A stretch of 64,000 nucleotides of DNA from Dehalococcoidia bacterium (GTDB lineage Bacteria > Chloroflexota > Dehalococcoidia > Bin125): positions 2,621,422-2,685,421 of the forward strand of contig OZ253471.1 in NCBI GenBank assembly GCA_965261715.1, read 5' to 3'. This document shows, in pieces, positions 12,650 to 52,593 of this stretch. Under the pieces are notes generated by a model, which was not told the DNA's origin, searched no databases, and worked only from the letters and a program-made list of their open reading frames with translations. Made by a program: the position numbers and the translations under genes. How positions within the stretch are numbered: the first letter of the stretch is position 1; each line of letters starts with the position of its first letter.

Positions 12650-12705
12650 GAAGGGACCCCCTCAGCCTGCGGCAGCTCCCCCTGCAAGGGGGAGCGGGAG
12701 GGCTT
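12650..12705. repeat. MITE/REP-like core fragment
   Basis: ccctcagcctgcggcagctccccctgcaagggggagcggga. Confidence 0.55.
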
Positions 12706-13792
12706 ATGACGTTCGCGCGATGATTGGGGCCATCTCGTCGACCAGGTCGTTGGCGGCAGCAGGATCGAGCGCGGTCAGGGCCAGGTGATCAACGCCGTGG
12801 GACTCGGCGAGTTCCGACTTCTCGATGATTTGATCGGGCGTGCCGATGATCATGTCGTTGAGCCGGTCGGCGGTGATGAAGCGCTCCTCGCCTTCCTTGA
12901 GGTAGCTGTAATGACCCTCGTGGACATCGAGGTAGAGGCGGTCGAGCGGGCGGCCTCGCTCCTCGGCGTATTCGGTGATGTACTGGTTGTACTCGGCCGC
13001 GACGTCGGGGTTGACGCCCTTGAGGTTGCCGCCCCAGCCGCCGTACTCCGACTCCCAGAGGGTGTGGTTGTAGACGGCGGCGACCGCGCCGGCGCGGTGC
13101 AGGACGCGCTCGGACATGAGGTCCTCGCCTTCCTGCATCACGCAGGCGCCGGTCAGTCCGACGGTGTAGGGCTTCTCGGTCGAGCGACCGGCAGACTGCG
13201 CGGCCTGCTCGATGATTGGGAATCCGCTGTCCAACCACGGACCGGTACCGGAGGTGACCCAGCCGTCGCCGACCTCGCCGACGACCGCGGTGGCTCGCGG
13301 GCCGTTGGCGGCGATGTAGACCGGGATGTGATCCTTGATGTTGTAGAAGTCGGGATGGTCCGGGTGGATCAGCCGAATCCAGGTCTCGCGGCCGGTAACA
13401 TTGTCGGTGTGGAGGATGTCATTGCCGTCGAGCAGGTCGCGGACTTGCTGGGCGTACTCGCGGAACTTCTTGACCGGATACGAGGGCAAACCCATCGTGT
13501 TGCGTCCGGTGTAGCCGGTGCCGAGCGCGAGAATCGTGCGTCCAGGCGCGAGCTTGTTGATCGTCGCAATGGCGGAGGCGGTGACCGGCGCGATCCGGTT
13601 GGAGGGAATCGAAACCAGCGTGCCCAGCTTGATCGTCGAGGTGCGTTCGGCGGCCAGCGCCATGGCCGCGTAGCAGTCGGACCAGATCAGCTGAGAGTCG
13701 GGGAACCAGGCGTGTGTGAAGCCCGCCTCCTCGGCGCGGACGACTTCCTTCCACATGTCGATGTAGGTGGGAACGAGCAGTCCGTAGTCCAT
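12704..13792 (-). CDS. LLM-class (probably F420-dependent) oxidoreductase, paralog 1
   Basis: 362-aa ORF; TIKLGT and GTGYTGRN LLM signatures; tandem paralog of the next gene. Confidence 0.75.
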   Translation of the reverse strand: MDYGLLVPTYIDMWKEVVRAEEAGFTHAWFPDSQLIWSDCYAAMALAAERTSTIKLGTLVSIPSNRIAPVTASAIATINKLAPGRTILALGTGYTGRNTMGLPSYPVKKFREYAQQVRDLLDGNDILHTDNVTGRETWIRLIHPDHPDFYNIKDHIPVYIAANGPRATAVVGEVGDGWVTSGTGPWLDSGFPIIEQAAQSAGRSTEKPYTVGLTGACVMQEGEDLMSERVLHRAGAVAAVYNHTLWESEYGGWGGNLKGVNPDVAAEYNQYITEYAEERGRPLDRLYLDVHEGHYSYLKEGEERFITADRLNDMIIGTPDQIIEKSELAESHGVDHLALTALDPAAANDLVDEMAPIIARTS

Positions 13793-13826
13793 ATTGGTTG
13801 CCCTTCGATTTGTCTGGGTGGTTCGG

Positions 13827-14915
13827 CTAGCCGCGCTTTTGGATGACTTCGCGGGAGAAGTCGTCGATGATTTCTCGGGCGCCGGCGGGGTCGTTGGCGG
13901 TCAGCGCGATGTTGTCGACGCCGATTGATTCGAGGTGTTCGAGTTTCTCGATGATCTCAGACCCAGAGCCGACCAGGCTGCGCTCAAGCACCTGCGGGTA
14001 GATGAAGCGCTCCTCGCCGGGCTTGAGGTAGACCATGTGGCCCTCGTGGACATCGAGGTAGAGGCGGTCCTCGGGCGTGCCCTTGGCGGCGGAGTACTCG
14101 CGGATGTAGTTGTTGTACTCGCCGGCGAGGTCAGGGTTGTCCATGCCGAGGTTGGCGCCGGGGCCGTAGGCGGCCTCCCACATCGCGTGTACGCCGGGCA
14201 CCATGGCCGGTCCGAGGATGCTCATGACTCGCTGGGATTCGACCGACTCGCCGTCTTGCAGGACGAGTCCAGAAGTGAGGCCGACCGTGTACGGCTTATC
14301 GGTCGAGCGTCCAGCGGCTTCTGCCGCGGCGGCGATCGCAGGGAAGGACTGCTGCGCGTTGAGTCCCATGCCGGTCGTGACCCAGCCGTCGCCGACCTGT
14401 CCCACGACCTCCATCGCGCGCGGCCCGTTAGCCGCAACGTAGATGGGAATGAAGTCGTCGAGGTTGAGGAATTCGGAATGCTGGCCGTGGATCAGCCGGA
14501 TCCAGCGCTCGTTGCCGGTGACATCGTCGGTGTAGAGCACGTCCTCACCATTGAGCAGTCCGCGCACCTGCTGGGCGTACTCGCGGTAGCGCTTGATCGG
14601 GTAGGCGGGCAGGCCCATGGTGTTGCGCCCGGTGTAGCCGGTGCCGATACCGAGGATGATCCGTCCCGGCGCCAACTTGTTGAGCGAAGCGACGGCAGAG
14701 GCAGTGACGGGCGCGATCCGGTTGGAAGGGATGGCGACGAGGGTGCCCAGCTTGATCGTCGAGGTGTGATGCGCGGCGAGGGCCATCGCCGCGTAGACGT
14801 CGGAGTAGATCAGTTGTGAGTCGTAGAACCAGGCATGGGTGAAGCCGGCGGCCTCGGCGCGCTGCACTTCCTGATAGGCGTTGATCCAACTGGGGATTCC
14901 GATGCCGTAGTCCAT
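13827..14915 (-). CDS. LLM-class (probably F420-dependent) oxidoreductase, paralog 2
   Basis: 362-aa ORF collinear with the previous gene (roughly 60-65% aa identity by eye). Confidence 0.75.
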   Translation of the reverse strand: MDYGIGIPSWINAYQEVQRAEAAGFTHAWFYDSQLIYSDVYAAMALAAHHTSTIKLGTLVAIPSNRIAPVTASAVASLNKLAPGRIILGIGTGYTGRNTMGLPAYPIKRYREYAQQVRGLLNGEDVLYTDDVTGNERWIRLIHGQHSEFLNLDDFIPIYVAANGPRAMEVVGQVGDGWVTTGMGLNAQQSFPAIAAAAEAAGRSTDKPYTVGLTSGLVLQDGESVESQRVMSILGPAMVPGVHAMWEAAYGPGANLGMDNPDLAGEYNNYIREYSAAKGTPEDRLYLDVHEGHMVYLKPGEERFIYPQVLERSLVGSGSEIIEKLEHLESIGVDNIALTANDPAGAREIIDDFSREVIQKRG

Positions 14916-18691: not shown

Positions 18692-19693
18692 TTAGCTATG
18701 ACTGCCGATGGGGATGTTGGCGACCTGCGGCGCGACATCTCGGGCGAGGAATTCGGGGACGTCGTCGCGCTCGAACATGAAGTGCTGGAACTGGACCTCG
18801 GCGACCCCGGCTTCGGCCAGTTTGCCGAGGGCGTCCACGACTTCGTCGGCGCCGCCGACGAGGCGTCCCATTGCGTTGAACTCGGTCAGGAACTCGTCCA
18901 GTGGCTGACCGGGTCGTCCGAACATGCCCTGGACAAACTTGCCTCCCGCCTCAACCAGTTCGGGCGGACCGACGGCGTGGAACATCATCATTGAGTGTTC
19001 GATTTCGTCGGGATTGCGGTCGATGGCTTCGCAGGCTCGGGCCAGGACATCGCGCTTGTGTCCGTAGGCGTCGGGTGTGAGTGAGACGCAGTTCCACTCG
19101 TCGGCGTATTTCGCGGCCATGGGGATGGTTCGCTTCTCCCCGCCTCCGCCGATCAGGATGGGCGGTCGGCCCGGCTCGGGGTTGGGCAAGCAGTCTGCGC
19201 CGTCCAGTTGGTAGTACTCGCCGCTGTAGTTGGATTGGCCGGGGCTCCAGAGCGCTTGCATGAGGTTGATTGCGTCTTCGAGGCGGTCGAAGCGCTCTTT
19301 GGTCGGCGGGAAGTTGAGACCGTAGGCGTCGTGCTCGGCCTGGTTCCAGCCGGTGCCGAGACCCATGACGAAGCGGCCGCCGGAGAGTTGGTCGATCTGT
19401 GCGGCCATGCGTCCGACATCGACTGGTCGTCGGAAGGTGACCGGTGTGACCATTGGTCCGAAGCGCAGGTTGGAGGTCTGCTCGGCGGCCATGACGAAGC
19501 TGAGGAAGCACTCAAGGCTGTCCTGCTGGTTGCTCGCGATGGGGCCGGTGAAGTAGTGGTCGCTGCGGAAGAGGGAAGGGAAGTCCAGTCGGTCGGCGAG
19601 TTTGAGGATGTGACGCCAGCGATCCCAGGTGAGACCGTTCTGTCCTTCAACCATCAGGGCGACGCGCATCAGTAGTACTCCTGCCACGCGCAT
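18692..19693 (-). CDS. LLM-class F420-dependent oxidoreductase
   Basis: 333-aa ORF; LLM signatures (FGPMVTPVTFRRP, GGRFVMGLGTGW); start may be at MRVALMVEG. Confidence 0.7.
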   Translation of the reverse strand: MRVAGVLLMRVALMVEGQNGLTWDRWRHILKLADRLDFPSLFRSDHYFTGPIASNQQDSLECFLSFVMAAEQTSNLRFGPMVTPVTFRRPVDVGRMAAQIDQLSGGRFVMGLGTGWNQAEHDAYGLNFPPTKERFDRLEDAINLMQALWSPGQSNYSGEYYQLDGADCLPNPEPGRPPILIGGGGEKRTIPMAAKYADEWNCVSLTPDAYGHKRDVLARACEAIDRNPDEIEHSMMMFHAVGPPELVEAGGKFVQGMFGRPGQPLDEFLTEFNAMGRLVGGADEVVDALGKLAEAGVAEVQFQHFMFERDDVPEFLARDVAPQVANIPIGSHS

Positions 19694-19794: not shown

Positions 19795-20153
19795 CGATCG
19801 CCCCCCCTTCTCCCCCCTCGCGGGGGAGATGCCGGAGGCAGAGGGGGGTCTCTCCATTCCAAGGCGTATCTGGTCGCTGGCGGAGGACCCCCCCCCTCTG
19901 TCACTTCGTGACATCTCCCCCCGCAAGGGGGGGAGAGGGGATTTGTGAGTTTTGCAAAGGTCTCCTTGCGGGGGAGATGCCGAAGGCAGAGGGGGGTTCC
20001 CTATCGCAATGCCTATCTGGTCGTCGCCGGCGACCCCCCCTCTGTCACTCCATGACATGTCCCCCCGCACGGGGGGGAGAGCGGAACTGAGAGTTTTGCA
20101 AAGGTCTCCGCGAGGGGGGAAGCGGGGAATGGGGTTATTCAGAGCATTCCTAG
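19795..20153. repeat. cluster of two MITE family B copies plus a family A right end
   Basis: gggggagatgccg(a/g)aggcagagggggg ... cccctctgtcac(t/c)(t/c)cgtgacatctcccc units joined by the linker ttgtgagttttgcaaaggtctcc; ends with ggggttattcagagcattcctag. Confidence 0.75.
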
Positions 20154-21283
20154 CGAGTAAAGGCGATGGCGTCGTCAAGCACGATGACGTCGACAGGATC
20201 GTCGGGATGCCAGACGACTTCGGTGCGCAGTCTCGCTTCGACTTCGACTCCCGACTGCAATCGCACACGGACGACCTGATCGTGCCCGTAGTACTCGCTG
20301 CTGATCACATTGGCGCAGTCGGGGCCGTCATCCTGGCAGGGCTTGAGCGCGAGCTGCTCGGGACGGAGCAGGATGTCGATGGGCTCACCGGTGGATTCTG
20401 TTTGCGGATCGGTAATGACCACGAAGCCCAGCTCAGTCTGGGCGCCGCCGCGGACTCGTTCACCTGGGAGGATGTTGGCGTCGCCGACGAAGGTGCCGAT
20501 GAAGCGCGTCTCCGGGCGGTAGTAGATGTCGTCGGGCGCGCCGATCTGTTCGATTCTGCCATTGCGCATGACGGCGACGCGGTCGGCGAGGGAGAGGGCT
20601 TCCTCGCGGTCGTGCGTGACGAAGACGGCGGCGGTGTTGGCCGCCTTGAGGATGTTGCGCATGGCGAGACGGAGGCTGGCTCGGAGATTCTGGTCGAGGT
20701 TGCTGAAGGGCTCGTCCAGCAGGACCGCGGCCGGCTCGGGCGCGAGCGCCCGGGCGAGCGCCACGCGCTGGGCTTCGCCGCCTGAAAGCTCGTGCGGATA
20801 GCGCTGCGCGAAATCATCGAGGCCGACGAGTTCCAGCATTTCCCTGACGCGCGCGGGTTCCTCGGTGTGTCGGAACCGGCGCAGCGGGCGGCTCCACCAG
20901 GCGTGGTGGCCGTTGGGCAGGCCGAAGGCGATGTTCTCGGCAACGCTGAGGTGCGGGAAGAGGGCAAAGTCCTGGGCGACCATGCCGATGCGGCGTTGTT
21001 CGGGTGGTCGCCAAACTCCGGGTCCGACGGCGGTCTCGCCGTTGATCTGGACCAGACCGCGGTCGGGTCGCTCGAAGCCAGCGAGGACGCGCAGCGTCGT
21101 GGACTTGCCACAGCCGCTGGGTCCGAGCAGGGCGACGATCTCGCCGTGCTGGACCTGGAACGAGGCGTCGCGGACGGCGGCAGTTTCGGCGAACGACTTC
21201 GTTACCTCTCGCACGACCAGCGCCGGGGTGAGGTTGGGATGGCTCTCGGGTTGACTATGCGCGGAGGTCACGGTCTTGTCCAA
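20150..21283 (-). CDS. ABC transporter ATP-binding protein (Fe3+/polyamine importer type, C-terminal TOBE-like domain)
   Basis: Walker A GPSGCGKST, ABC signature LSGGEAQR, Walker B LLDEP. Confidence 0.8.
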   Translation of the reverse strand: MDKTVTSAHSQPESHPNLTPALVVREVTKSFAETAAVRDASFQVQHGEIVALLGPSGCGKSTTLRVLAGFERPDRGLVQINGETAVGPGVWRPPEQRRIGMVAQDFALFPHLSVAENIAFGLPNGHHAWWSRPLRRFRHTEEPARVREMLELVGLDDFAQRYPHELSGGEAQRVALARALAPEPAAVLLDEPFSNLDQNLRASLRLAMRNILKAANTAAVFVTHDREEALSLADRVAVMRNGRIEQIGAPDDIYYRPETRFIGTFVGDANILPGERVRGGAQTELGFVVITDPQTESTGEPIDILLRPEQLALKPCQDDGPDCANVISSEYYGHDQVVRVRLQSGVEVEARLRTEVVWHPDDPVDVIVLDDAIAFTR

Positions 21284-22934: not shown

Positions 22935-23200
22935 AATGGCTTATGGAACTCTGATCGGTGGCCGGCTTTCGGCAGCTTCCCGCGCGCGGAGACCCTTGCG
23001 TAAGTCGGCATCCCCCCCTTGGGGAGACCTTTGAAAAACTCCTCTTCTCCCCCCTTGCGGGGGAGATGCCGAAGGCAGAGGGGGGGCTCCCCATCTCAAG
23101 GCCTATCTGGTCGCTGGCGCCCCCCCTCTGTCACTCCGTGACATCTCCCCCCGCAAGGGGGGGAGAGGGGATCTGGATCGTTCGGAGCATGCTTATGGAA
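22935..23200. repeat. MITE family B composite cluster inserted between the substrate-binding and permease genes of the ABC operon
   Basis: cttatggaact...cggcagcttcc leader then ttgcgggggagatgccgaaggcagaggggggg...cccctctgtcactccgtgacatctccccccgcaaggggggagaggggat. Confidence 0.75.
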
Positions 23201-24877: not shown

Positions 24878-24937
24878 TTGCGTGCTGGGGAGCCCCCTCC
24901 GTCACTTCGTGACACCTCCCCCAGAGGGGGAGGTCTG
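24878..24937. repeat. partial MITE family B copy
   Basis: ggggagccccctccgtcacttcgtgacacctcccccagagggggagg. Confidence 0.55.
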
Positions 24938-24942
24938 GAACT

Positions 24943-25404
24943 CTAGTCTCGGCGCTTTCGCTTTTCGATTTTGCGGCCACTCTGCTCTTCGAGGCGGCCG
25001 AGGGCTCGGCCTTTGTCTGGGTGTGGGTCTTTGCGGACACCGTAGATGGCGATGCCTTCGTGATTTTCCGGGAGGTACTCGGTGATGGGAAGACCTTCCT
25101 CATCGCAGAAGAGTAGTCAATGGCAGTATTTCCAACGCTGCATCTCCTCGCAGGGACAGATCCAGGTGGACTCTTTGACCTCTTCGGCCTTGTCCTCGTA
25201 GAAGTTGCAGGGACAGAGCGGACGGCCGTAGTCGTCGATGTGCTTGGCCAGACCAATCACGAGGAATTCGGTGATGTCTTCCTGGGGGTGGAGGTAGGAC
25301 CCACTCTTGTCCGCGAATTTGGTCGCGAACTTGGTCATCTTGTTGAGGTTCTTTTCGGACGCTTGCTGTCGATCGCCCTCGCTGACTCTTTCAACTTCTG
25401 TCAT
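24943..25404 (-). CDS. ferredoxin-thioredoxin reductase catalytic-subunit homolog with an in-frame TGA at the conserved CHC cysteine (candidate selenocysteine; otherwise a pseudogene)
   Basis: table ORF 25117..25404 ends ...LCPCNFYEDKAEEVKESTWICPCEEMQRWKYCH-TGA; the same frame continues LLFCDEEGLPITEY... to TAG at 24943-24945; CPC-16-CPC-8-CH(TGA)-LF spacing matches cyanobacterial FtrC CPC...CPC...CHCMLF. Confidence 0.5.
25084..25104 (-). promoter_or_regulatory. candidate SECIS-like hairpin GAUG(A)GGAA-GGUC-UUCCCAUC beginning about 13 nt downstream of the in-frame UGA
   Basis: 8-bp stem with one bulged A and a GGUC apical loop containing GU, in the position where bacterial SECIS elements occur. 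Confidence 0.3.
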
Positions 25405-25482
25405 CGCGCTCCGCCCGTCTATCCGAATTTCAACTTCGTCGGCAGGTTCACTGTACGTCTTGGGGGATCGAACCGATGGCGG

Positions 25483-26370: not shown

Positions 26371-27229
26371 AGTTTACTCCAGCGCCAACGGCGCAACAGC
26401 CATGCAACTGACGCAGGCGTGGGCTGTGCGCGTCGTGGGAAATCGGGAACAGGCGGAACGGGTACGGGAGGAATCGGACGGTGGCGATCACTACCGCCCG
26501 ATCGCGTCGGCGTTCCGCGCCGATCCTCGGCGCACGGGCGACGCGGCGTTGGAGGCACTGCTGGAGCTGGCGTCGAAGGATGACGTCTGGGTTGACGTTG
26601 GCGCCGGGGCCGGCAGATTCGCTCTGCCGCTGGCTCTGCATGTCCAGAAGGTGATCGCGGTTGAGCCGTCGCGGGGCATGAGGGCGGAGTTGGCGCAGAT
26701 GCAAGTGGAGCACGGCGTGTTGAACGTCGAGGTGCGCGAACAGCGTTGGCCGTCGGATGATCCGGAGATCTCGGGCATGGCCGATGTGGCGTTGATCTCG
26801 CATGTTGCCTACGACATCGAACCGATCGGCGAGTTCCTGGACGCGCTGGAGCGGTCGGCGACGAGGGAGTGCGTGGCGATTCTCTACGATCGCTCGCCCG
26901 GATCACTGTTCTGGGAGGTCTGGCCGGCGGTCCACAGCGAGGAACAAGTGCATCTGCCAGGAGGCAATGAGTTTGTCGAGCTGCTGGAAGCGCGTGGCGC
27001 GCAGGTTGATGCGGTCGAGATTGGGCGCGGGGGAGACCGACAACGATTCATGTTCGGCTCGCCCGATGACGCGATGGGATGGGCGCGACGGCGACTATGG
27101 TTGGCTAAGGATTCGTCGCGGTTGCCGGTGTTGCGCGATGCGGTGGCGGAACTATTGATTGAACGGGACGGCTCGTGGTCGTTGCCGGATCAACCGAAAC
27201 AGATGCTGATTCGCTGGAGGACAAGATGA
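26363..27229 (+). CDS. class I SAM-dependent methyltransferase
   Basis: motif I VDVGAGAGRFALPLA; start at MSKVY, or alternatively MQLTQ at 26402 to avoid divergent overlap with the neighbouring gene. Confidence 0.6.
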   Translation: MSKVYSSANGATAMQLTQAWAVRVVGNREQAERVREESDGGDHYRPIASAFRADPRRTGDAALEALLELASKDDVWVDVGAGAGRFALPLALHVQKVIAVEPSRGMRAELAQMQVEHGVLNVEVREQRWPSDDPEISGMADVALISHVAYDIEPIGEFLDALERSATRECVAILYDRSPGSLFWEVWPAVHSEEQVHLPGGNEFVELLEARGAQVDAVEIGRGGDRQRFMFGSPDDAMGWARRRLWLAKDSSRLPVLRDAVAELLIERDGSWSLPDQPKQMLIRWRTR

Positions 27230-27816
27230 ACCGAGTTACACCGATGACAACCGCCGAGCTGCTGGAGGCGGCGCCGTATCTGTCGGCCATTCATAACAAC
27301 GGAGGCACGATTCCCACGTCGTTCCATGTCCTGGGACGGCGGCCGAAGGTGCTGGAAGCATTCCAGCCGTTCTTCGGTTCAATCATGCGGGAAGGAACGG
27401 TGCCGCCAGGTCTGAAGCAACTGATTGCGCACGTGGTCTCGCGTACGGCCGGGTGTCTGTACTGCCAGGCGCATACGGGACACTTTGCGCACACGCTTGC
27501 GGGCGAGACCTACGAGCGAGTCGAAGCAGTGTGGGCGTTTGAGACGTCGGAGTTGTTCTCAGAGGCCGAACGCGCTGCGTTGCGGGTCGCTCGCGACTCC
27601 GGCGGCGTACCGAATGCTACGACGGATGAGCAGTTCGACGAACTGCGGAAGTACTGGTCGGACTCGGAGATGGTTGAGATTGTTTGCGTGATCTCGATGT
27701 TTGGATTCCTCAATCGGTTCAATGACACGTTGGCGAACGAGCTGGAGCCGGACGCGGTTGAGTTTTCGGACGCTCATCTGGTGCAGGCGGGCTGGTCGGT
27801 CGGCAAGCACGGCTGA
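27226..27816 (+). CDS. carboxymuconolactone decarboxylase (AhpD-like) family protein
   Basis: CxxC(x)H motif CLYCQAH; start ATG overlaps the previous stop (ATGA). Confidence 0.65.
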   Translation: MNRVTPMTTAELLEAAPYLSAIHNNGGTIPTSFHVLGRRPKVLEAFQPFFGSIMREGTVPPGLKQLIAHVVSRTAGCLYCQAHTGHFAHTLAGETYERVEAVWAFETSELFSEAERAALRVARDSGGVPNATTDEQFDELRKYWSDSEMVEIVCVISMFGFLNRFNDTLANELEPDAVEFSDAHLVQAGWSVGKHG

Positions 27817-31761: not shown

Positions 31762-32235
31762 TCAGCGGCCTGTCCGCAAGGCCTTGAGGACCGCTTGCCC
31801 GTGGTCGGCGGCATTGGCGCGCTTCCAGACCTTGGTCAGCACACCGTCCGGTCCGATGACGAATGTAGCACGGGTCATGCCGATGCTCTTGCGCCCGTAG
31901 AGCGTCTTCTCGCCCCAGGCGCCGTAGCGCGTGGATACCTCGGTATCCGTGTCAACGAGGAGCGGAAAGTTGAGGTCGTACTTGTCGCGGAACTTCTGGT
32001 GCGAGTCGGCGCTGTCAATAGAGACGCCAAGCACGATTGCGCCTTCCGCCGCGATCTCGTCCATGTCGTCGCGGAACGAACAGGCCTGCTTGGTGCATCC
32101 TGGAGTGTCGTCGCGAGGATAGAAGTAGAGGACGACGGTCTGTCCGGCGTAGTCGGCGAGCTTGTGAGTGTTGCCATCCTGATCGGAAAGCAGGAAGTCG
32201 GGCGCTTGATCGCCTTTGGCGAGTGTGACGGACAT
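31762..32235 (-). CDS. bcp: thioredoxin-dependent thiol peroxidase (peroxiredoxin Bcp/PrxQ)
   Basis: FYPRDDTPGCTKQAC peroxidatic-Cys motif; 157 aa. Confidence 0.85.
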   Translation of the reverse strand: MSVTLAKGDQAPDFLLSDQDGNTHKLADYAGQTVVLYFYPRDDTPGCTKQACSFRDDMDEIAAEGAIVLGVSIDSADSHQKFRDKYDLNFPLLVDTDTEVSTRYGAWGEKTLYGRKSIGMTRATFVIGPDGVLTKVWKRANAADHGQAVLKALRTGR

Positions 32236-34304: not shown

Positions 34305-34595
34305 GTTTCTTATGGAACTTCTGGACAATAGGGTCGGTGGCCGAGCGGGACCCTCCCCATCAGCCTTCGGCAGCTTCCCCCGCAAGGAGACCTTTGCAGA
34401 ACTCACAAATCCCTTCTCCCCCCCTTGCGGGGGGAGATGTCACGGAGTGACAGAGGGGGGGTCCGCCGCCAGCGACCAGATAGGCCTTGAGATGGGGAGC
34501 CCCCCCTCTGCCTGCGGCATCTCCCCCGCAAGGGGGGCGAAGAGGACTTATGCAAAGGTCTCCGCAAGGGGGGAAGCGAGGATCACGGAGCCGGG
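34305..34595. repeat. MITE family B composite cluster (inverted orientation relative to 19795-20153)
   Basis: cttatggaacttctgg...cagccttcggcagcttcccccgcaaggagacctttgcag...ggggagatgtcacggagtgacagagggggg... Confidence 0.7.
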
Positions 34596-35615: not shown

Positions 35616-36539
35616 ATGACCACGACCGCGAGCCGGCCGGCCTCTGTGGACACGCTGTCATGGCTCGAGGCGGAGGGGATCCACATCATCCGCGAGGTCG
35701 CGGCAGAACTGGAACGACCTTGCCTGCTCTTCTCGGGCGGCAAGGACTCGATTGTGATGCTGCGATTGGCCGAGAAGGCGTTCTGGCCGGCGCGGATTCC
35801 GTTTCCCGTGATGCACGTCGACACCGGCCACAACTTTCCCGAGGCGATTGAATTCCGCGACCGCCGAGCCTCCGAGCTTGAACTGGAACTGATTGTCGCC
35901 TTGGTGCAGGACTCGATTGATCAGGGTCGCGTGGTCGAAGAGGTCGGACCGCGGGCTTCACGCAATCGCTTGCAGACGGTGACCTTGCTGGACGCGGTGC
36001 TCGAGCACAACTTCGACGCGCTCTTTGGCGGCGCGAGACGGGACGAGGAGAAGGCGCGGGCGAAGGAGCGCATCTTCTCGTTCCGCGACGCCTTTGGTCA
36101 GTGGGATCCGTCCAACCAGCGCCCGGAGCTGTGGAATCTGTACAACGGCCGACTGACGCGGGGGGAACACATTCGGGCGTTTCCTCTGTCGAACTGGACC
36201 GAGCTCGATGTCTGGCAGTACATCAAGCGGGAACGGCTGGAGATTCCTTCGATCTATTTCGCGCATGAACGGTCGATGTTCAAACGCGACGGGATGTTGT
36301 TTCCGACGTCGGACTTCGTTCCTCGGCTGCCAGGCGAGGATCCATTTGACGCAAGCGTGCGCTTCCGCACCGTCGGCGACATGACTTGCACGGCCGGTGT
36401 GTTGTCGCAGGCCGAGACGCTGGACGCGGTGGTGGCGGAGATTGCGGCGACGCGGATCACCGAACGCGGTGAGACGCGGGCCGACGACCGCTTCTCGGAG
36501 GCGGCGATGGAGGATCGTAAGCGCGAGGGGTACTTCTAG
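35616..36539 (+). CDS. cysD: sulfate adenylyltransferase subunit 2
   Basis: PAPS-reductase-like fold LLFSGGKDSIVMLRLA, VMHVDTGHNFPE; collinear with CysD over its length; start taken at MTTTAS. Confidence 0.85.
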   Translation: MTTTASRPASVDTLSWLEAEGIHIIREVAAELERPCLLFSGGKDSIVMLRLAEKAFWPARIPFPVMHVDTGHNFPEAIEFRDRRASELELELIVALVQDSIDQGRVVEEVGPRASRNRLQTVTLLDAVLEHNFDALFGGARRDEEKARAKERIFSFRDAFGQWDPSNQRPELWNLYNGRLTRGEHIRAFPLSNWTELDVWQYIKRERLEIPSIYFAHERSMFKRDGMLFPTSDFVPRLPGEDPFDASVRFRTVGDMTCTAGVLSQAETLDAVVAEIAATRITERGETRADDRFSEAAMEDRKREGYF

Positions 36540-37855
36540 TGAGCACAGGATTGAATGGCGCTGCGAACGCGTCGCCCGAAGAGGTGTTGGGGCTGGATCA
36601 GCGGACGCTGCTGCGCCTGGCGACGGCCGGGTCGGTCGATGACGGTAAGTCGACGCTGATCGGTCGCTTACTGTTCGATTCCAAGCAGATATTCATCGAT
36701 CAGATGGAGGCGATTGAACGGACGTCCCGGACTCGGGGCGAAGAAGATGTCAACTTGGCCTATCTGACCGATGGACTGCGCTCGGAGCGCGAGCAGGGCA
36801 TCACGATCGACGTGGCCTATCGCTACTTTTCCACACCTCGTCGCAAGTTCATCCTGGCCGACACACCGGGTCACGTGCAGTACACACGCAACATGGTGAC
36901 CGGCGCATCGACGGCCGACGCCGCGTTGCTGCTCGTTGATGCTCGGCGAGGCGTGCTGGAGCAGACACGGCGGCACGCGTACCTGTCCAATCTGCTGGGC
37001 ATTCGGCATTTCGTGCTTTGCGTGAACAAGATGGACCTGGTCGGGTGGGATCGGGCGGTGTTCGACGAGATCACGGAGGAGTTGACGCGCTTCGCCTCAC
37101 GCATGGGCGTCACCGATGTACGCGCGATCCCGATCTCGGCGAAATTCGGCGACTGGGTCGTTGATCCTTCCGAGCGCATGGCTTGGTACCCAGGGCCGCC
37201 GTTGCTGGAACAGCTTGAGACGCTTGAGGCATCCGAGCCGCCGCAGCACCAGGCATCGCGATTTCCGGTGCAGTATGTGATTCGTCCGCTGCGAGACGAG
37301 TACCACGACTACCGCGGATACGCCGGGACGATGGCGTCGGGCGTGTTGCGGGTCGGCGATCGGGTCAAGGTGATGCCCTCGGGCGCGGAGACGAGGGTCG
37401 CAGGGATTGACGCCTTCAACCAGCAGTTGGCGGAGGCGACGCCACCGATGGCGATCACGGTTCGGCTCGCCGATCAGTTGGATGTGCGTCGCGGTTCGAT
37501 GATTGTGTCGGCTGAACATCCACCGGTCGCCGCTACGTCTATTGACGCTCACATCTGCTGGATGAGCGAGCGGGTTCCCCTGCGCGCGCGGGATCGATTG
37601 GTGTTGAAGCTGACGACGCAGACCACACGCGCGCTGGTCGAAGAAGTCGGCGCTCGGCTTGATGTGAATACGCTGGAATACGACTTGACTGCGTCGCAGT
37701 TGTCCTTGAACGAAATCGGACGGGTCCGGCTGCGACTCATGGCCCCATTGTCGGTTGACCCATACGCTGAGTCGCGGGAGACGGGGGCGTTCATCCTGAT
37801 TGATGAAGCGACGTCAGCGACCGTCGGCGCAGGGATGATCACCTCCGGGGAATAG
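36539..37855 (+). CDS. cysN: sulfate adenylyltransferase subunit 1 (GTPase)
   Basis: G1 GSVDDGKST, G3 DTPGH, G4 NKMD; GTG start immediately after the cysD stop. Confidence 0.85.
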   Translation: MSTGLNGAANASPEEVLGLDQRTLLRLATAGSVDDGKSTLIGRLLFDSKQIFIDQMEAIERTSRTRGEEDVNLAYLTDGLRSEREQGITIDVAYRYFSTPRRKFILADTPGHVQYTRNMVTGASTADAALLLVDARRGVLEQTRRHAYLSNLLGIRHFVLCVNKMDLVGWDRAVFDEITEELTRFASRMGVTDVRAIPISAKFGDWVVDPSERMAWYPGPPLLEQLETLEASEPPQHQASRFPVQYVIRPLRDEYHDYRGYAGTMASGVLRVGDRVKVMPSGAETRVAGIDAFNQQLAEATPPMAITVRLADQLDVRRGSMIVSAEHPPVAATSIDAHICWMSERVPLRARDRLVLKLTTQTTRALVEEVGARLDVNTLEYDLTASQLSLNEIGRVRLRLMAPLSVDPYAESRETGAFILIDEATSATVGAGMITSGE

Positions 37856-38799: not shown

Positions 38800-39035
38800 G
38801 ACCCCTGTCTGTCACTCCGTGACATCTCCCCCCTTGCGGAGACCTTTGAAAAACTCCCCTTCGCCCCCCTTGCGGGGGAGATGCCGTAGGCAGGGGGGGC
38901 TCCTCATCCCCTGGCATATCTAGTCGCTGTGCGCGGACCCCCCCTCTGTCACTCCGTGACATCTCCCCCCGCAAGGGGGGGAGAGGGGATTTGTGAGTTT
39001 TGCAAAGGTCTCCTTGCGGGGGGTGAGGGGATCTC
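38800..39035. repeat. MITE family B cluster inserted between the SBP and permease genes of the oxyanion ABC operon
   Basis: two units with ...cccctgtctgtcactccgtgacatctcccccc... and ...ttgcgggggagatgccgtaggcaggggggg...cccctctgtcactccgtgacatctccccccgcaaggggggagaggggatttgtgagttttgcaaaggtctcc. Confidence 0.75.
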
Positions 39036-45024: not shown

Positions 45025-45170
45025 AACACTCCCCTTCGCCCCCCTTGCGGGGGAGATGCCGTAGGCAGAGGGGGGGCTCCCAATCTCGTGGCCTATCTGG
45101 TCGCTGCCGGAGCCCCCCTCTGTCACTCCGTGACATCTCCCCCCGCAAGGGGGGGAGAGGGGAACAAAGT
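45025..45170. repeat. MITE family B copy
   Basis: ccccttgcgggggagatgccgtaggcagagggggggctcc...cccctctgtcactccgtgacatctccccccgcaagggggggagagggga. Confidence 0.75.
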
Positions 45171-45515: not shown

Positions 45516-45580
45516 TGGCCAAGCGGGACCCCCCCTCTGTCACTCCGTGACATCTCCCCCCGCAAGGGGGGGAAGGGAGC
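45516..45580. repeat. MITE family B half copy
   Basis: ccccctctgtcactccgtgacatctccccccgcaagggggggaaggg. Confidence 0.6.
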
Positions 45581-45585
45581 ATGGG

Positions 45586-45885
45586 CTAGAAGTCGTCCAT
45601 GCCGAAGTCGTCGTGGCCGTGGTCGTGACCGTGGCCGCCCATGCCCATGCCACCCATGTCGGGCATGCCACCCATGTCAGGCATGCCGCCCATGGCTCCC
45701 ATATCGAAGTCATCGAACGATGAGCCGCCTGATCCCGTGTGGATCGCGACGCCGGCGCCGAAGACGCGGGCGCCGACTCCACCTTCGCAAGCGGGGCAAT
45801 CGGGCGTGTCGGGCGCCTGACCCATTTTGGCGAGGACATCGAAGACGTTGGTGCACTGGGGGCACTTGTACTCGTACATCGGCAT
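45586..45885 (-). CDS. FmdB-family zinc-ribbon protein with Gly/Met/His-rich C-terminal tail
   Basis: MPMYEYKCPQC...CPAC zinc ribbon; tail GMPDMGGMPDMGGMGMGGHGHDHGHDDF. Confidence 0.5.
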   Translation of the reverse strand: MPMYEYKCPQCTNVFDVLAKMGQAPDTPDCPACEGGVGARVFGAGVAIHTGSGGSSFDDFDMGAMGGMPDMGGMPDMGGMGMGGHGHDHGHDDFGMDDF

Positions 45886-46006
45886 AAGGTGTTCCCTCCC
45901 TTGAGGATGCTGAGCTGTGGTTGGTCGTTGGGTCATATCTTACGACGGTGACCCGCGATTCCGACGCGGCGTACTGAACAGGGGAACCGATCAAAGGAGT
46001 GGGGCG

Positions 46007-52475: not shown

Positions 52476-52593
52476 AGAGCTCCCCCTCTGGGGGAGCTCC
52501 CGCGCAGCGGGTGAGGGGCCCGGCTCGGCGTCGTGCAGATGGCGGGCGGCCCCCTCAGTCACTTCGTGACAGCTCCCCCAAAGGGGGAGCTCT
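52476..52593. repeat. MITE family B variant (agctcc subtype), complete
   Basis: agagctccccctctgggggagctccc...gccccctcagtcacttcgtgacagctcccccaaagggggagctct. Confidence 0.7.

Follow-up and report, generated by a model that had tools for sequence, protein, structure and literature searches.

The 64-kb window analysed here, 64,000 nucleotides of contig OZ253471.1 from a Dehalococcoidia bacterium, contains on its minus strand an open reading frame (ORF) that starts with an ATG at 25404-25402, runs for 95 codons ending ...CPCEEMQRWKYCH and then meets a TGA at 25119-25117. Beyond this TGA the same frame continues for another 57 codons, reading LLFCDEEGLPITEYLPENHEGIAIYGVRKDPHPDKGRALGRLEEQSGRKIEKRKRRD, up to a TAG at 24945-24943. 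A sequence-only reading of the window had joined the two parts into one gene, a homolog of the catalytic subunit of ferredoxin:thioredoxin reductase (FTR) in which a UGA at a conserved cysteine position may encode selenocysteine (Sec). Its ORF coordinates, its frame and the terminal TAG were confirmed by direct reading of the letters. TGA is an ordinary stop codon in the source genome, where it terminates 19 of the 52 genes of the window, so any decoding of the TGA in the FTR gene must be site-specific. We scored every TGA of the window with a codon-usage log-odds model that was trained on the window's own genes and applied to 30-codon flanks. The FTR codon was the sole sense-strand TGA with coding signal on either side of it. 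The highest score in this screen went to a TGA at 20783, which seems to lie antisense to an ABC ATPase gene. No other selenoprotein gene was found in the window by this screen or by a second screen for N-terminal Sec.

Codon 96 was substituted by Cys for family searches. The product matched the FeThRed_B family (PF02943) with 89.8 bits (cutoff 22, E = 1.4e-25) and the FTR catalytic chains in the PDB with E-values ranging from 6e-25 to 1e-19, among them those of Arabidopsis (7BZK, E = 5.7e-25) and Synechocystis (1DJ7, E = 1.9e-21). On the strength of these matches the protein is a member of the FTR catalytic-subunit superfamily (PF02943/COG4802 FtrB). The alignment with chain A of 1DJ7 contains no gaps and pairs query residues 16-101 with chain residues 7-92, placing C64, C66, C83, C85 and C94 on residues 55, 57, 74, 76 and 85, and codon 96 on residue 87. 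Five of the six positions of the FTR signature, CPC-X16-CPC-X8-CHC, are therefore occupied by Cys in the window protein, and the remaining one, position 87, is the TGA. The motif spacing given in the sequence-only reading was correct, and its assignment of the TGA to Cys87, the second Cys of the CHC motif and the redox-active residue next to the cluster, is borne out by the ungapped alignment. It had also proposed homologs as a check; 118 of the 120 top homologs have Cys at the TGA-equivalent position, and at least 192 related loci carry TGA there. A structure was predicted for a Cys homolog that is 71% identical to the window protein (P0004) and stands in for it. The model has a mean pLDDT of 90, and the blocks that span the segment after the TGA-equivalent position reach 94-98 and form an ordered part of the same domain. 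It superimposes on 7BZK and 1DJ7 to 0.9-1.0 Å over 88-89 columns at about 40% identity, so that the FTR fold is predicted for this 71%-identical homolog.

The TGA and the frame behind it recur in many other sequences. The exact 95-residue, TGA-ended product is present on 19-20 contigs that come from independent samples and assemblers and from both long-read and short-read data, including contigs of 2.4 Mb and 3.65 Mb (ERZ26694896 ctg118013). All of them share the gene order PAC2, FTR, ribosomal protein S14 and then an iron ABC transporter. The window is about 91-96% nucleotide-identical to contigs of Dehalococcoidia metagenome-assembled genomes (MAGs; L117, L008), and the TGA with its downstream frame is also kept in two more diverged lineages (L001/L002 and L003/L004, ~72% amino-acid identity). 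Genome and metagenome collections were scanned with a degenerate pattern for K-Y-C-H-TGA-L-L-F, the counts from which are lower bounds. The scan gave at least 249 matches; at least 192 are bona fide FTR genes with an in-frame TGA, representing at least 173 unique 180-nt regions, and the remainder are mostly obvious chance matches. At least 94 of the TGA-FTR genes come from species-representative genomes, which by record title comprise 90 Chloroflexota, two Entotheonella and two unclassified entries. The Chloroflexota carriers are mostly Dehalococcoidia, one of them labelled SAR202, and include several sponge-associated MAG series. Among the matches listed, the TGA-FTR cores are 73% identical to the window protein at the median, and the second motif reads CPC in 105 genes and CAC in 87. 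The in-frame continuation after the TGA is 52-88 codons long in nearly all loci. Mean pairwise differences at the first, second and third codon positions are 0.227/0.184/0.503 downstream of the TGA and 0.300/0.269/0.491 upstream, a pattern that indicates purifying selection on the post-TGA segment at least as strong as that on the N-terminal part. Alignment with 67 Cys homologs gave 36 invariant columns, of which 14 are located downstream of the TGA.

Some members of this collection are unusual. One TGA form (L065, JANPBN010000499.1) has CPS in place of CPC in the first motif, which makes the Cys57-equivalent nucleophile a Ser; this may point to a variant active site or to an error in sequencing. 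The CHU-type TGA-FTR genes outside the Chloroflexota stand in MAGs assigned to Candidatus Entotheonella/Entotheonellaceae (L033, L069); they may have been acquired by lateral transfer, or may stem from co-occurring sponge or soil Chloroflexota through contamination during binning.

Downstream of the UGA the mRNA can form the hairpin GAUG(A)GGAA-GGUC-UUCCCAUC, in which the stem is separated from the UGA by 12 nt and the loop by 21 nt. The 8-bp stem and its bulged A had been described in the sequence-only reading, but with a spacing of 13 nt. The 48 nt from the UGA onward fold with a minimum free energy (MFE) of -11.4 kcal/mol. The published model of the bacterial selenocysteine insertion sequence (bSECIS) specifies a loop of 3-9 nt with a G in its first two positions, a stem of 4-16 bp, a distance of 16-37 nt from the UGA and an MFE of -7.5 kcal/mol or lower (PMC13188914). 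The window hairpin falls within all of these limits when the extended fold is considered (GGUC loop, 8 bp, 21 nt, -11.4 kcal/mol), as do the MFE folds of 119 of the 149 unique Sec-form sequences, whereas some members of the clade depart from the consensus, with a loop of 3 nt (GGA) or with the hairpin in another register.

Covariation was tested on 86 unique sequences. Paired cells amounted to 78.3% versus 71.5% in shuffles, double-sided changes to 55 versus 32, and the covariation score to 0.195 versus 0.119 (0/500 shuffles in each case). Compensatory changes occur at five of the eight pairs, for example GC/UG/CG beside the bulge and GC/AU at the base of the stem, and covariation was lower in every slid register. 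Default RNAalifold on 148 sequences returned almost no consensus because the register of bulge and loop shifts between subclades. As a control for coding constraint, the same peptides were re-encoded synonymously with the family's own codon usage. The real sequences had a mean MFE of -8.16 kcal/mol compared with -4.38 kcal/mol for the recoded ones and were the more stable in 99% of cases. Five distinct Cys-form (TGC) genes that encode a near-identical peptide (e.g. CLLFVNEEGLPITEY) keep 1-6 of the 8 pairs and average -3.3 kcal/mol. Together, the covariation, the recoding control and the Cys-form genes indicate that the hairpin is selected specifically where the codon is TGA. It is probably a SECIS-like element and a putative binding site of SelB.

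ARAGORN identified a tRNA-Sec gene (selC, anticodon TCA) in 28 of the 183 TGA-FTR loci listed, 12 of 94 from genomes and 16 of 89 from metagenomes. In 17 of these 28 loci it lies 375-530 nt from the TGA, a distance that puts it shortly before the start of the FTR gene. A tRNA-Sec is absent from all 57 chance-match loci, and the linkage expected by chance is well under 1% if a single selC in a genome of ~3 Mb is assumed. The recurrent placement of selC directly upstream suggests that these lineages have FTR among their core selenoproteins. Consistent with a selenoprotein-rich group, two of the ten bacteria with the most selenoprotein genes in BSepDB are Dehalococcoidia MAGs, which have 49 and 46 of them (PMC13326102). 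Loci in which selC stands immediately upstream of the TGA-FTR, usually in divergent orientation, include L016, L021, L023, L091 and L123 among the 28 listed. The selC-FTR linkage is absent in the window lineage. ARAGORN found no tRNA gene in the window, and so no selC, and Rfam gave no match there at gathering thresholds. Searches by tblastn for SelA, SelB and SelD across the window and ~1.6 Mb of related loci, made with approximate E. coli queries that serve as leads only, detected no sel genes. The sole match of the SelB query was a GTPase ORF of the window (36539-37855) that looks like CysN.

The UGA at codon 96 is very probably decoded as selenocysteine, a reading to which we assign a probability of about 0.88. 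The core of the sequence-only reading, a Sec-containing FTR-like disulfide reductase, is strongly supported by the conservation of the TGA, the selection on the downstream frame, the covariation of the hairpin and the linkage to selC. Several observations weigh against Sec. None of selA, selB, selC and selD is encoded in the window; the capacity of this organism to decode Sec is extrapolated from relatives, and the selC-linked FTRs among them are 58-79% identical to the core of the window protein. Compared with its own dinucleotide shuffles the window hairpin is not significant (z = -0.73, with 42 of 200 shuffles folding equally well), so that the case for it is a comparative one, and its 21-nt core alone reaches only -6.6 kcal/mol. 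About 20% of the Sec-form sequences miss some bSECIS criterion in their MFE fold, some of them with a shifted register. The variable subunit of FTR (FeThRed_A) was not found among the called genes within 10 kb in the syntenic loci. Finally, the cluster, the selenylsulfide, the electron donor and the substrate are all deduced by homology.

These points have to be set beside what the other explanations of the TGA would entail. Were it a nonsense mutation in a Cys-type FTR gene, with the downstream frame a decaying remnant, one could account for the Cys in 118 of the 120 top homologs and for the gene callers and GenBank records that end the gene at the TGA. This pseudogene reading is effectively refuted, and we regard its chance as negligible, by a TGA that recurs in at least 192 loci and at least 173 unique sequences with cores at a median of 73% identity to the window, and by a downstream segment with strong third-position bias, 14 invariant residues and a frame that stays open over 52-88 codons in almost every locus. 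The same recurrence across dozens of species makes it extremely improbable that a sequencing or assembly error conceals a TGC or TGT. A single-base difference would suffice for such an error and the window alone provides no safeguard, but the identical product was recovered on 19-20 contigs from independent samples, assemblers and long- and short-read data, and the hairpin is specific to TGA forms. Genuine termination requires that the 95-residue protein be functional and that the downstream sequence be conserved for another reason, for example because it holds a small ORF of its own or an RNA element. Annotations do call a 95-residue protein, and a hairpin after a stop codon can be read as an attenuator or terminator. 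Such a product would, however, be without the redox residue equivalent to Cys87. Conservation of the downstream sequence is at the protein level, in the frame of the upstream part, with no requirement for a start codon and with the codon-position pattern given above; moreover, the Cys forms match it residue by residue in their C-terminal part, which in the P0004 model is ordered within the same domain (pLDDT 94-98). Termination is therefore very unlikely.

Decoding of the UGA as something other than Sec, or not only as Sec, is unlikely as well. Under this explanation Cys would be inserted through the Sec pathway at low selenium, or Trp or Gly by near-cognate read-through stimulated by the hairpin. 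The position is that of a redox-active Cys in homologs, a tRNA-Sec gene lies beside the FTR gene in 28 of the loci listed, the hairpin fits the SelB-type bSECIS model and the lineage is rich in selenoproteins, all of which argue for Sec. For the alternative it can be said that the evidence speaks to recoding and to a SECIS-like hairpin, not to the chemical identity of the residue, and that no Sec machinery is encoded in the 64-kb window. Such Cys insertion at UGA by way of the Sec pathway has been described for some organisms when selenium is limiting.

If the UGA is decoded as Sec, the gene product would be a 152-residue selenoprotein and a single-subunit-type homolog of the FTR catalytic chain. 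The hairpin 12 nt past the UGA, with its GGUC loop and bulged A, would recruit the SelB-tRNA(Sec) complex, and the UGA would be recoded. C64, C83, C85 and C94 are predicted to ligate a [4Fe-4S] cluster, and C66 and U96 to form a redox-active selenylsulfide beside it. In FTR, as recounted in PMC3838966 with reference to Dai et al. 2007, one active-site sulfur attacks the disulfide of thioredoxin while the other binds an iron of the cluster as a fifth ligand, and the mixed disulfide is cleaved upon arrival of the second electron. The first motif supplies the nucleophilic Cys, whose partner follows 30 residues later (Cys87 and Cys117 in Arabidopsis), a pair that corresponds to C66 and U96 in the window protein; the TGA thus replaces the cluster-interacting, resolving cysteine. 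C66 is the equivalent of the nucleophile Cys57 and the presumed selenylsulfide partner of U96. By analogy with FTR, C66 would attack the thioredoxin disulfide after the first electron from ferredoxin, the Se of residue 96 would become the fifth ligand of the cluster iron, and residue 96 would resolve the mixed disulfide after the second electron. On this mechanism Sec would take the place of the cluster-interacting resolving residue and not that of the surface nucleophile.

A thioredoxin-type substrate fits the distribution of neighbouring genes in related loci. An ORF with a thioredoxin motif is present in 51 of the 192 loci listed and stands beside the FTR gene in, for example, L022, L045 and L078; no thioredoxin, ferredoxin or glutaredoxin was found beside the window FTR gene. 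Since the host is a non-photosynthetic member of the Dehalococcoidia (Chloroflexota), the physiological role would be ferredoxin-driven thiol-disulfide reduction and not light signalling.

The sequence-only reading had regarded the gene as a candidate new selenoprotein and FTR as absent from the described families. That claim does not hold. FTR catalytic-subunit homologs were among the seven new selenoprotein families in the 2008 Global Ocean Sampling (GOS) study of Zhang and Gladyshev (PMC2398784), FTR with a CxU motif is listed in the selenoproteome reviews of 2022 and 2026 (PMC9312934, PMC13188914), and NCBIfam contains the entry NF041072, 'FtrB family double-selenoprotein'. The GOS sequences (Dataset S2) read ...YCPU...ICPC...FCIU..., with Sec at both redox positions. 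In the window gene codon 66 is TGC (CPC) and codon 96 alone is TGA, and its protein scores 44.5 bits against NF041072, below the cutoff of 160. It shares with the NF041072/GOS proteins the superfamily, a Sec codon at the Cys87 equivalent within a C-x-U motif, a bacterial SECIS right after the UGA and the presumed redox role. However, it is 26% identical to them, has Cys at the Cys57 equivalent and a CHU motif, occurs in Chloroflexota, and extends at the C-terminus by ~55 conserved residues, which are absent from the 104-residue GOS protein. By these comparisons the window gene is part of a different FtrB clade that is close to the canonical FTR catalytic chain and has a single predicted Sec. 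This single-Sec clade is not described in PMC2398784, PMC9312934, PMC13188914 or NF041072.

Canonical FTRs (1DJ7, 2PU9, 2PVG and 7BZK), which in oxygenic phototrophs are heterodimers of the catalytic and a variable subunit, share the CPC-X16-CPC-X8-CH[C/U] arrangement with the window protein and align with it over 86-89 residues without gaps (E = 1e-21 to 6e-25). The window protein differs from them in the predicted Sec for Cys87, in its non-photosynthetic host, in the lack of a variable subunit within 10 kb in the syntenic loci, and in ~50 C-terminal residues without counterpart; the TM-score of the P0004 model is 0.56 when normalised to the query and 0.77 when normalised to the target. The Cys-type FTR-like proteins of Dehalococcoidia/Chloroflexota (for example P0002, P0004 and P0015) share the architecture of the window protein and, C-terminal segment included, are 68-74% identical to it along the whole length, but have TGC at the position in question and no hairpin downstream. 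The FDR of Methanosarcina acetivorans (4TPU) and the glutaredoxin/FDR fusion of Desulfotalea (7PWE) likewise have an FTR-like Fe-S core and come from non-photosynthetic prokaryotes. They are more remote, with 22-25% identity and fold E-values of 5e-4 to 4.5e-3, they are fused to rubredoxin or glutaredoxin domains, and they align through the Sec position as Cys-containing proteins.

Sec and Cys forms were interleaved in a distance clustering. The MAG SJ354 (JADLFF01) contains two TGA forms and one Cys form (L086, L106, L251), and the MAG MoH-23oct19-41 contains two TGA forms (L023, L067). The interleaving together with the SJ354 paralogs indicates either several Sec clades or repeated exchange between Sec and Cys. 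We tentatively propose, at somewhat less than even odds, that the single-Sec CHU form is a distinct and yet uncatalogued subfamily ('FTR form 2'). It would be widespread in Dehalococcoidia/Chloroflexota with two Entotheonella carriers, would have exchanged repeatedly with Cys forms, would be linked to selC in several lineages, and would combine a Cys nucleophile with an Fe-Se bond in the catalytic intermediate.

Table 1. Features of the FTR locus and repeat copies in the 64-kb window (window coordinates).
Feature	Position	Strand	Basis and remarks
Predicted complete selenoprotein gene, FTR catalytic-subunit (FtrB/FeThRed_B) homolog	24943..25404	-	152 sense codons (95 + Sec-UGA + 57) plus terminal TAG; sequence and frame, PF02943, PDB chains, at least 192 related loci of like architecture
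In-frame TGA, codon 96, probably read as Sec	25117..25119	-	Equivalent to Synechocystis FTR Cys87 (redox-active, [4Fe-4S]-interacting); ungapped 1DJ7_A alignment
First CPC motif, C64-P-C66	25207..25215	-	1DJ7 alignment; C64, P65 and C66 are invariant columns
Second CPC motif, C83-P-C85	25150..25158	-	Equivalents of cluster ligands Cys74 and Cys76; C83 and C85 invariant
C94-H95 of the CH[U] motif	25120..25125	-	C94 equivalent to cluster ligand Cys85; alignment and invariance
SECIS-like hairpin core	25084..25104	-	8-bp stem, bulged A, apical loop GGUC (25095..25092); folds, covariation, absence from Cys forms, published bSECIS criteria
Extended stem-loop, lower stem flanking the core hairpin	25076..25115	-	Predicted fold of the 48 nt from the UGA onward, MFE -11.4 kcal/mol; single-sequence prediction
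Post-UGA coding segment, 57 codons, translated only upon UGA decoding	24946..25116	-	Codon-position differences; 14 of 36 invariant family columns (G104...R133)
Possible Shine-Dalgarno GGAG, 4 nt 5' of the ATG	25409..25412	-	Inferred from the sequence read directly
Copies of the 27-nt palindrome	19892-19918, 23122-23148, 24893-24919, 34433-34459, 38940-38966, 45114-45140, 45531-45557, 52550-52576

The neighbours of the FTR gene in the window encode PAC2, a methyltransferase, a CMD/AhpD-like protein, SDR, components of a metal ABC transporter, an RNase T-like protein, Bcp and S14 (Table 1 lists the features of the FTR gene itself). The AhpD-like (CMD, 27175-27816) and Bcp (31762-32235) genes had been named before and are indeed present; the glutaredoxin gene that had been named with them was not found in the window. 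In a set of loci with a Cys-form FTR (L253-L255, protein P0069) a 58-residue glutaredoxin-like ORF lies convergent with and immediately downstream of the FTR gene, an arrangement that the sequence-only reading may have expected but that does not occur in the window.

A GC-rich palindrome of 27 nt, GGAG[GA]TGTCACG[AG]AGTGAC[AG]GAGGGGG, has eight copies in the window at no more than 3 mismatches, with 0 expected by chance, and one of these copies is located just 3' of the FTR stop codon. The palindromes resemble a REP-like family of intergenic repeats, and their translation gives spurious ORFs such as ...PPLCHFVTSPPARGGE... At 45589-45936 on the minus strand the window encodes an FmdB-type zinc-ribbon protein (PF09723); the GOS catalogue includes Sec forms of this family, but the window gene is a Cys form (CPQC). 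Several paralogous ORFs with similar N-termini (MDYG...AGFTHAWF) are found at 12704-14915 and 18692-19693 (minus strand) of the window, and their counterparts in syntenic loci (L001, L005-L008) are listed as luciferase-like monooxygenases (PF00296). Such an expansion of luciferase-like paralogs is characteristic of SAR202-type Dehalococcoidia.

In public databases the proteins of this clade are shortened at the Sec codon and some of them are misnamed. The records end at the TGA, and products of 83-95 residues such as MCY4618455.1, MDE2896544.1 and MCY3568885.1 carry the name 'ferredoxin--nitrite reductase'. One cluster at 90% identity has 75 member sequences, those listed being 83-95 residues long. 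The sole curated model of Sec-containing FTR, NF041072, misses the clade, and a second model or subfamily entry would correct its annotation. The group affected is large and environmentally abundant, with marine, sponge-associated, subsurface and soil Dehalococcoidia. A single-Sec FTR does not overturn current understanding. It does provide a natural experiment in which selenium would be present at the cluster-interacting resolving Cys only, versus at both positions in the published family. A comparison of the CHC, CHU and CPU/CIU forms could reveal what Sec contributes to one-electron, Fe-S-coupled disulfide chemistry.

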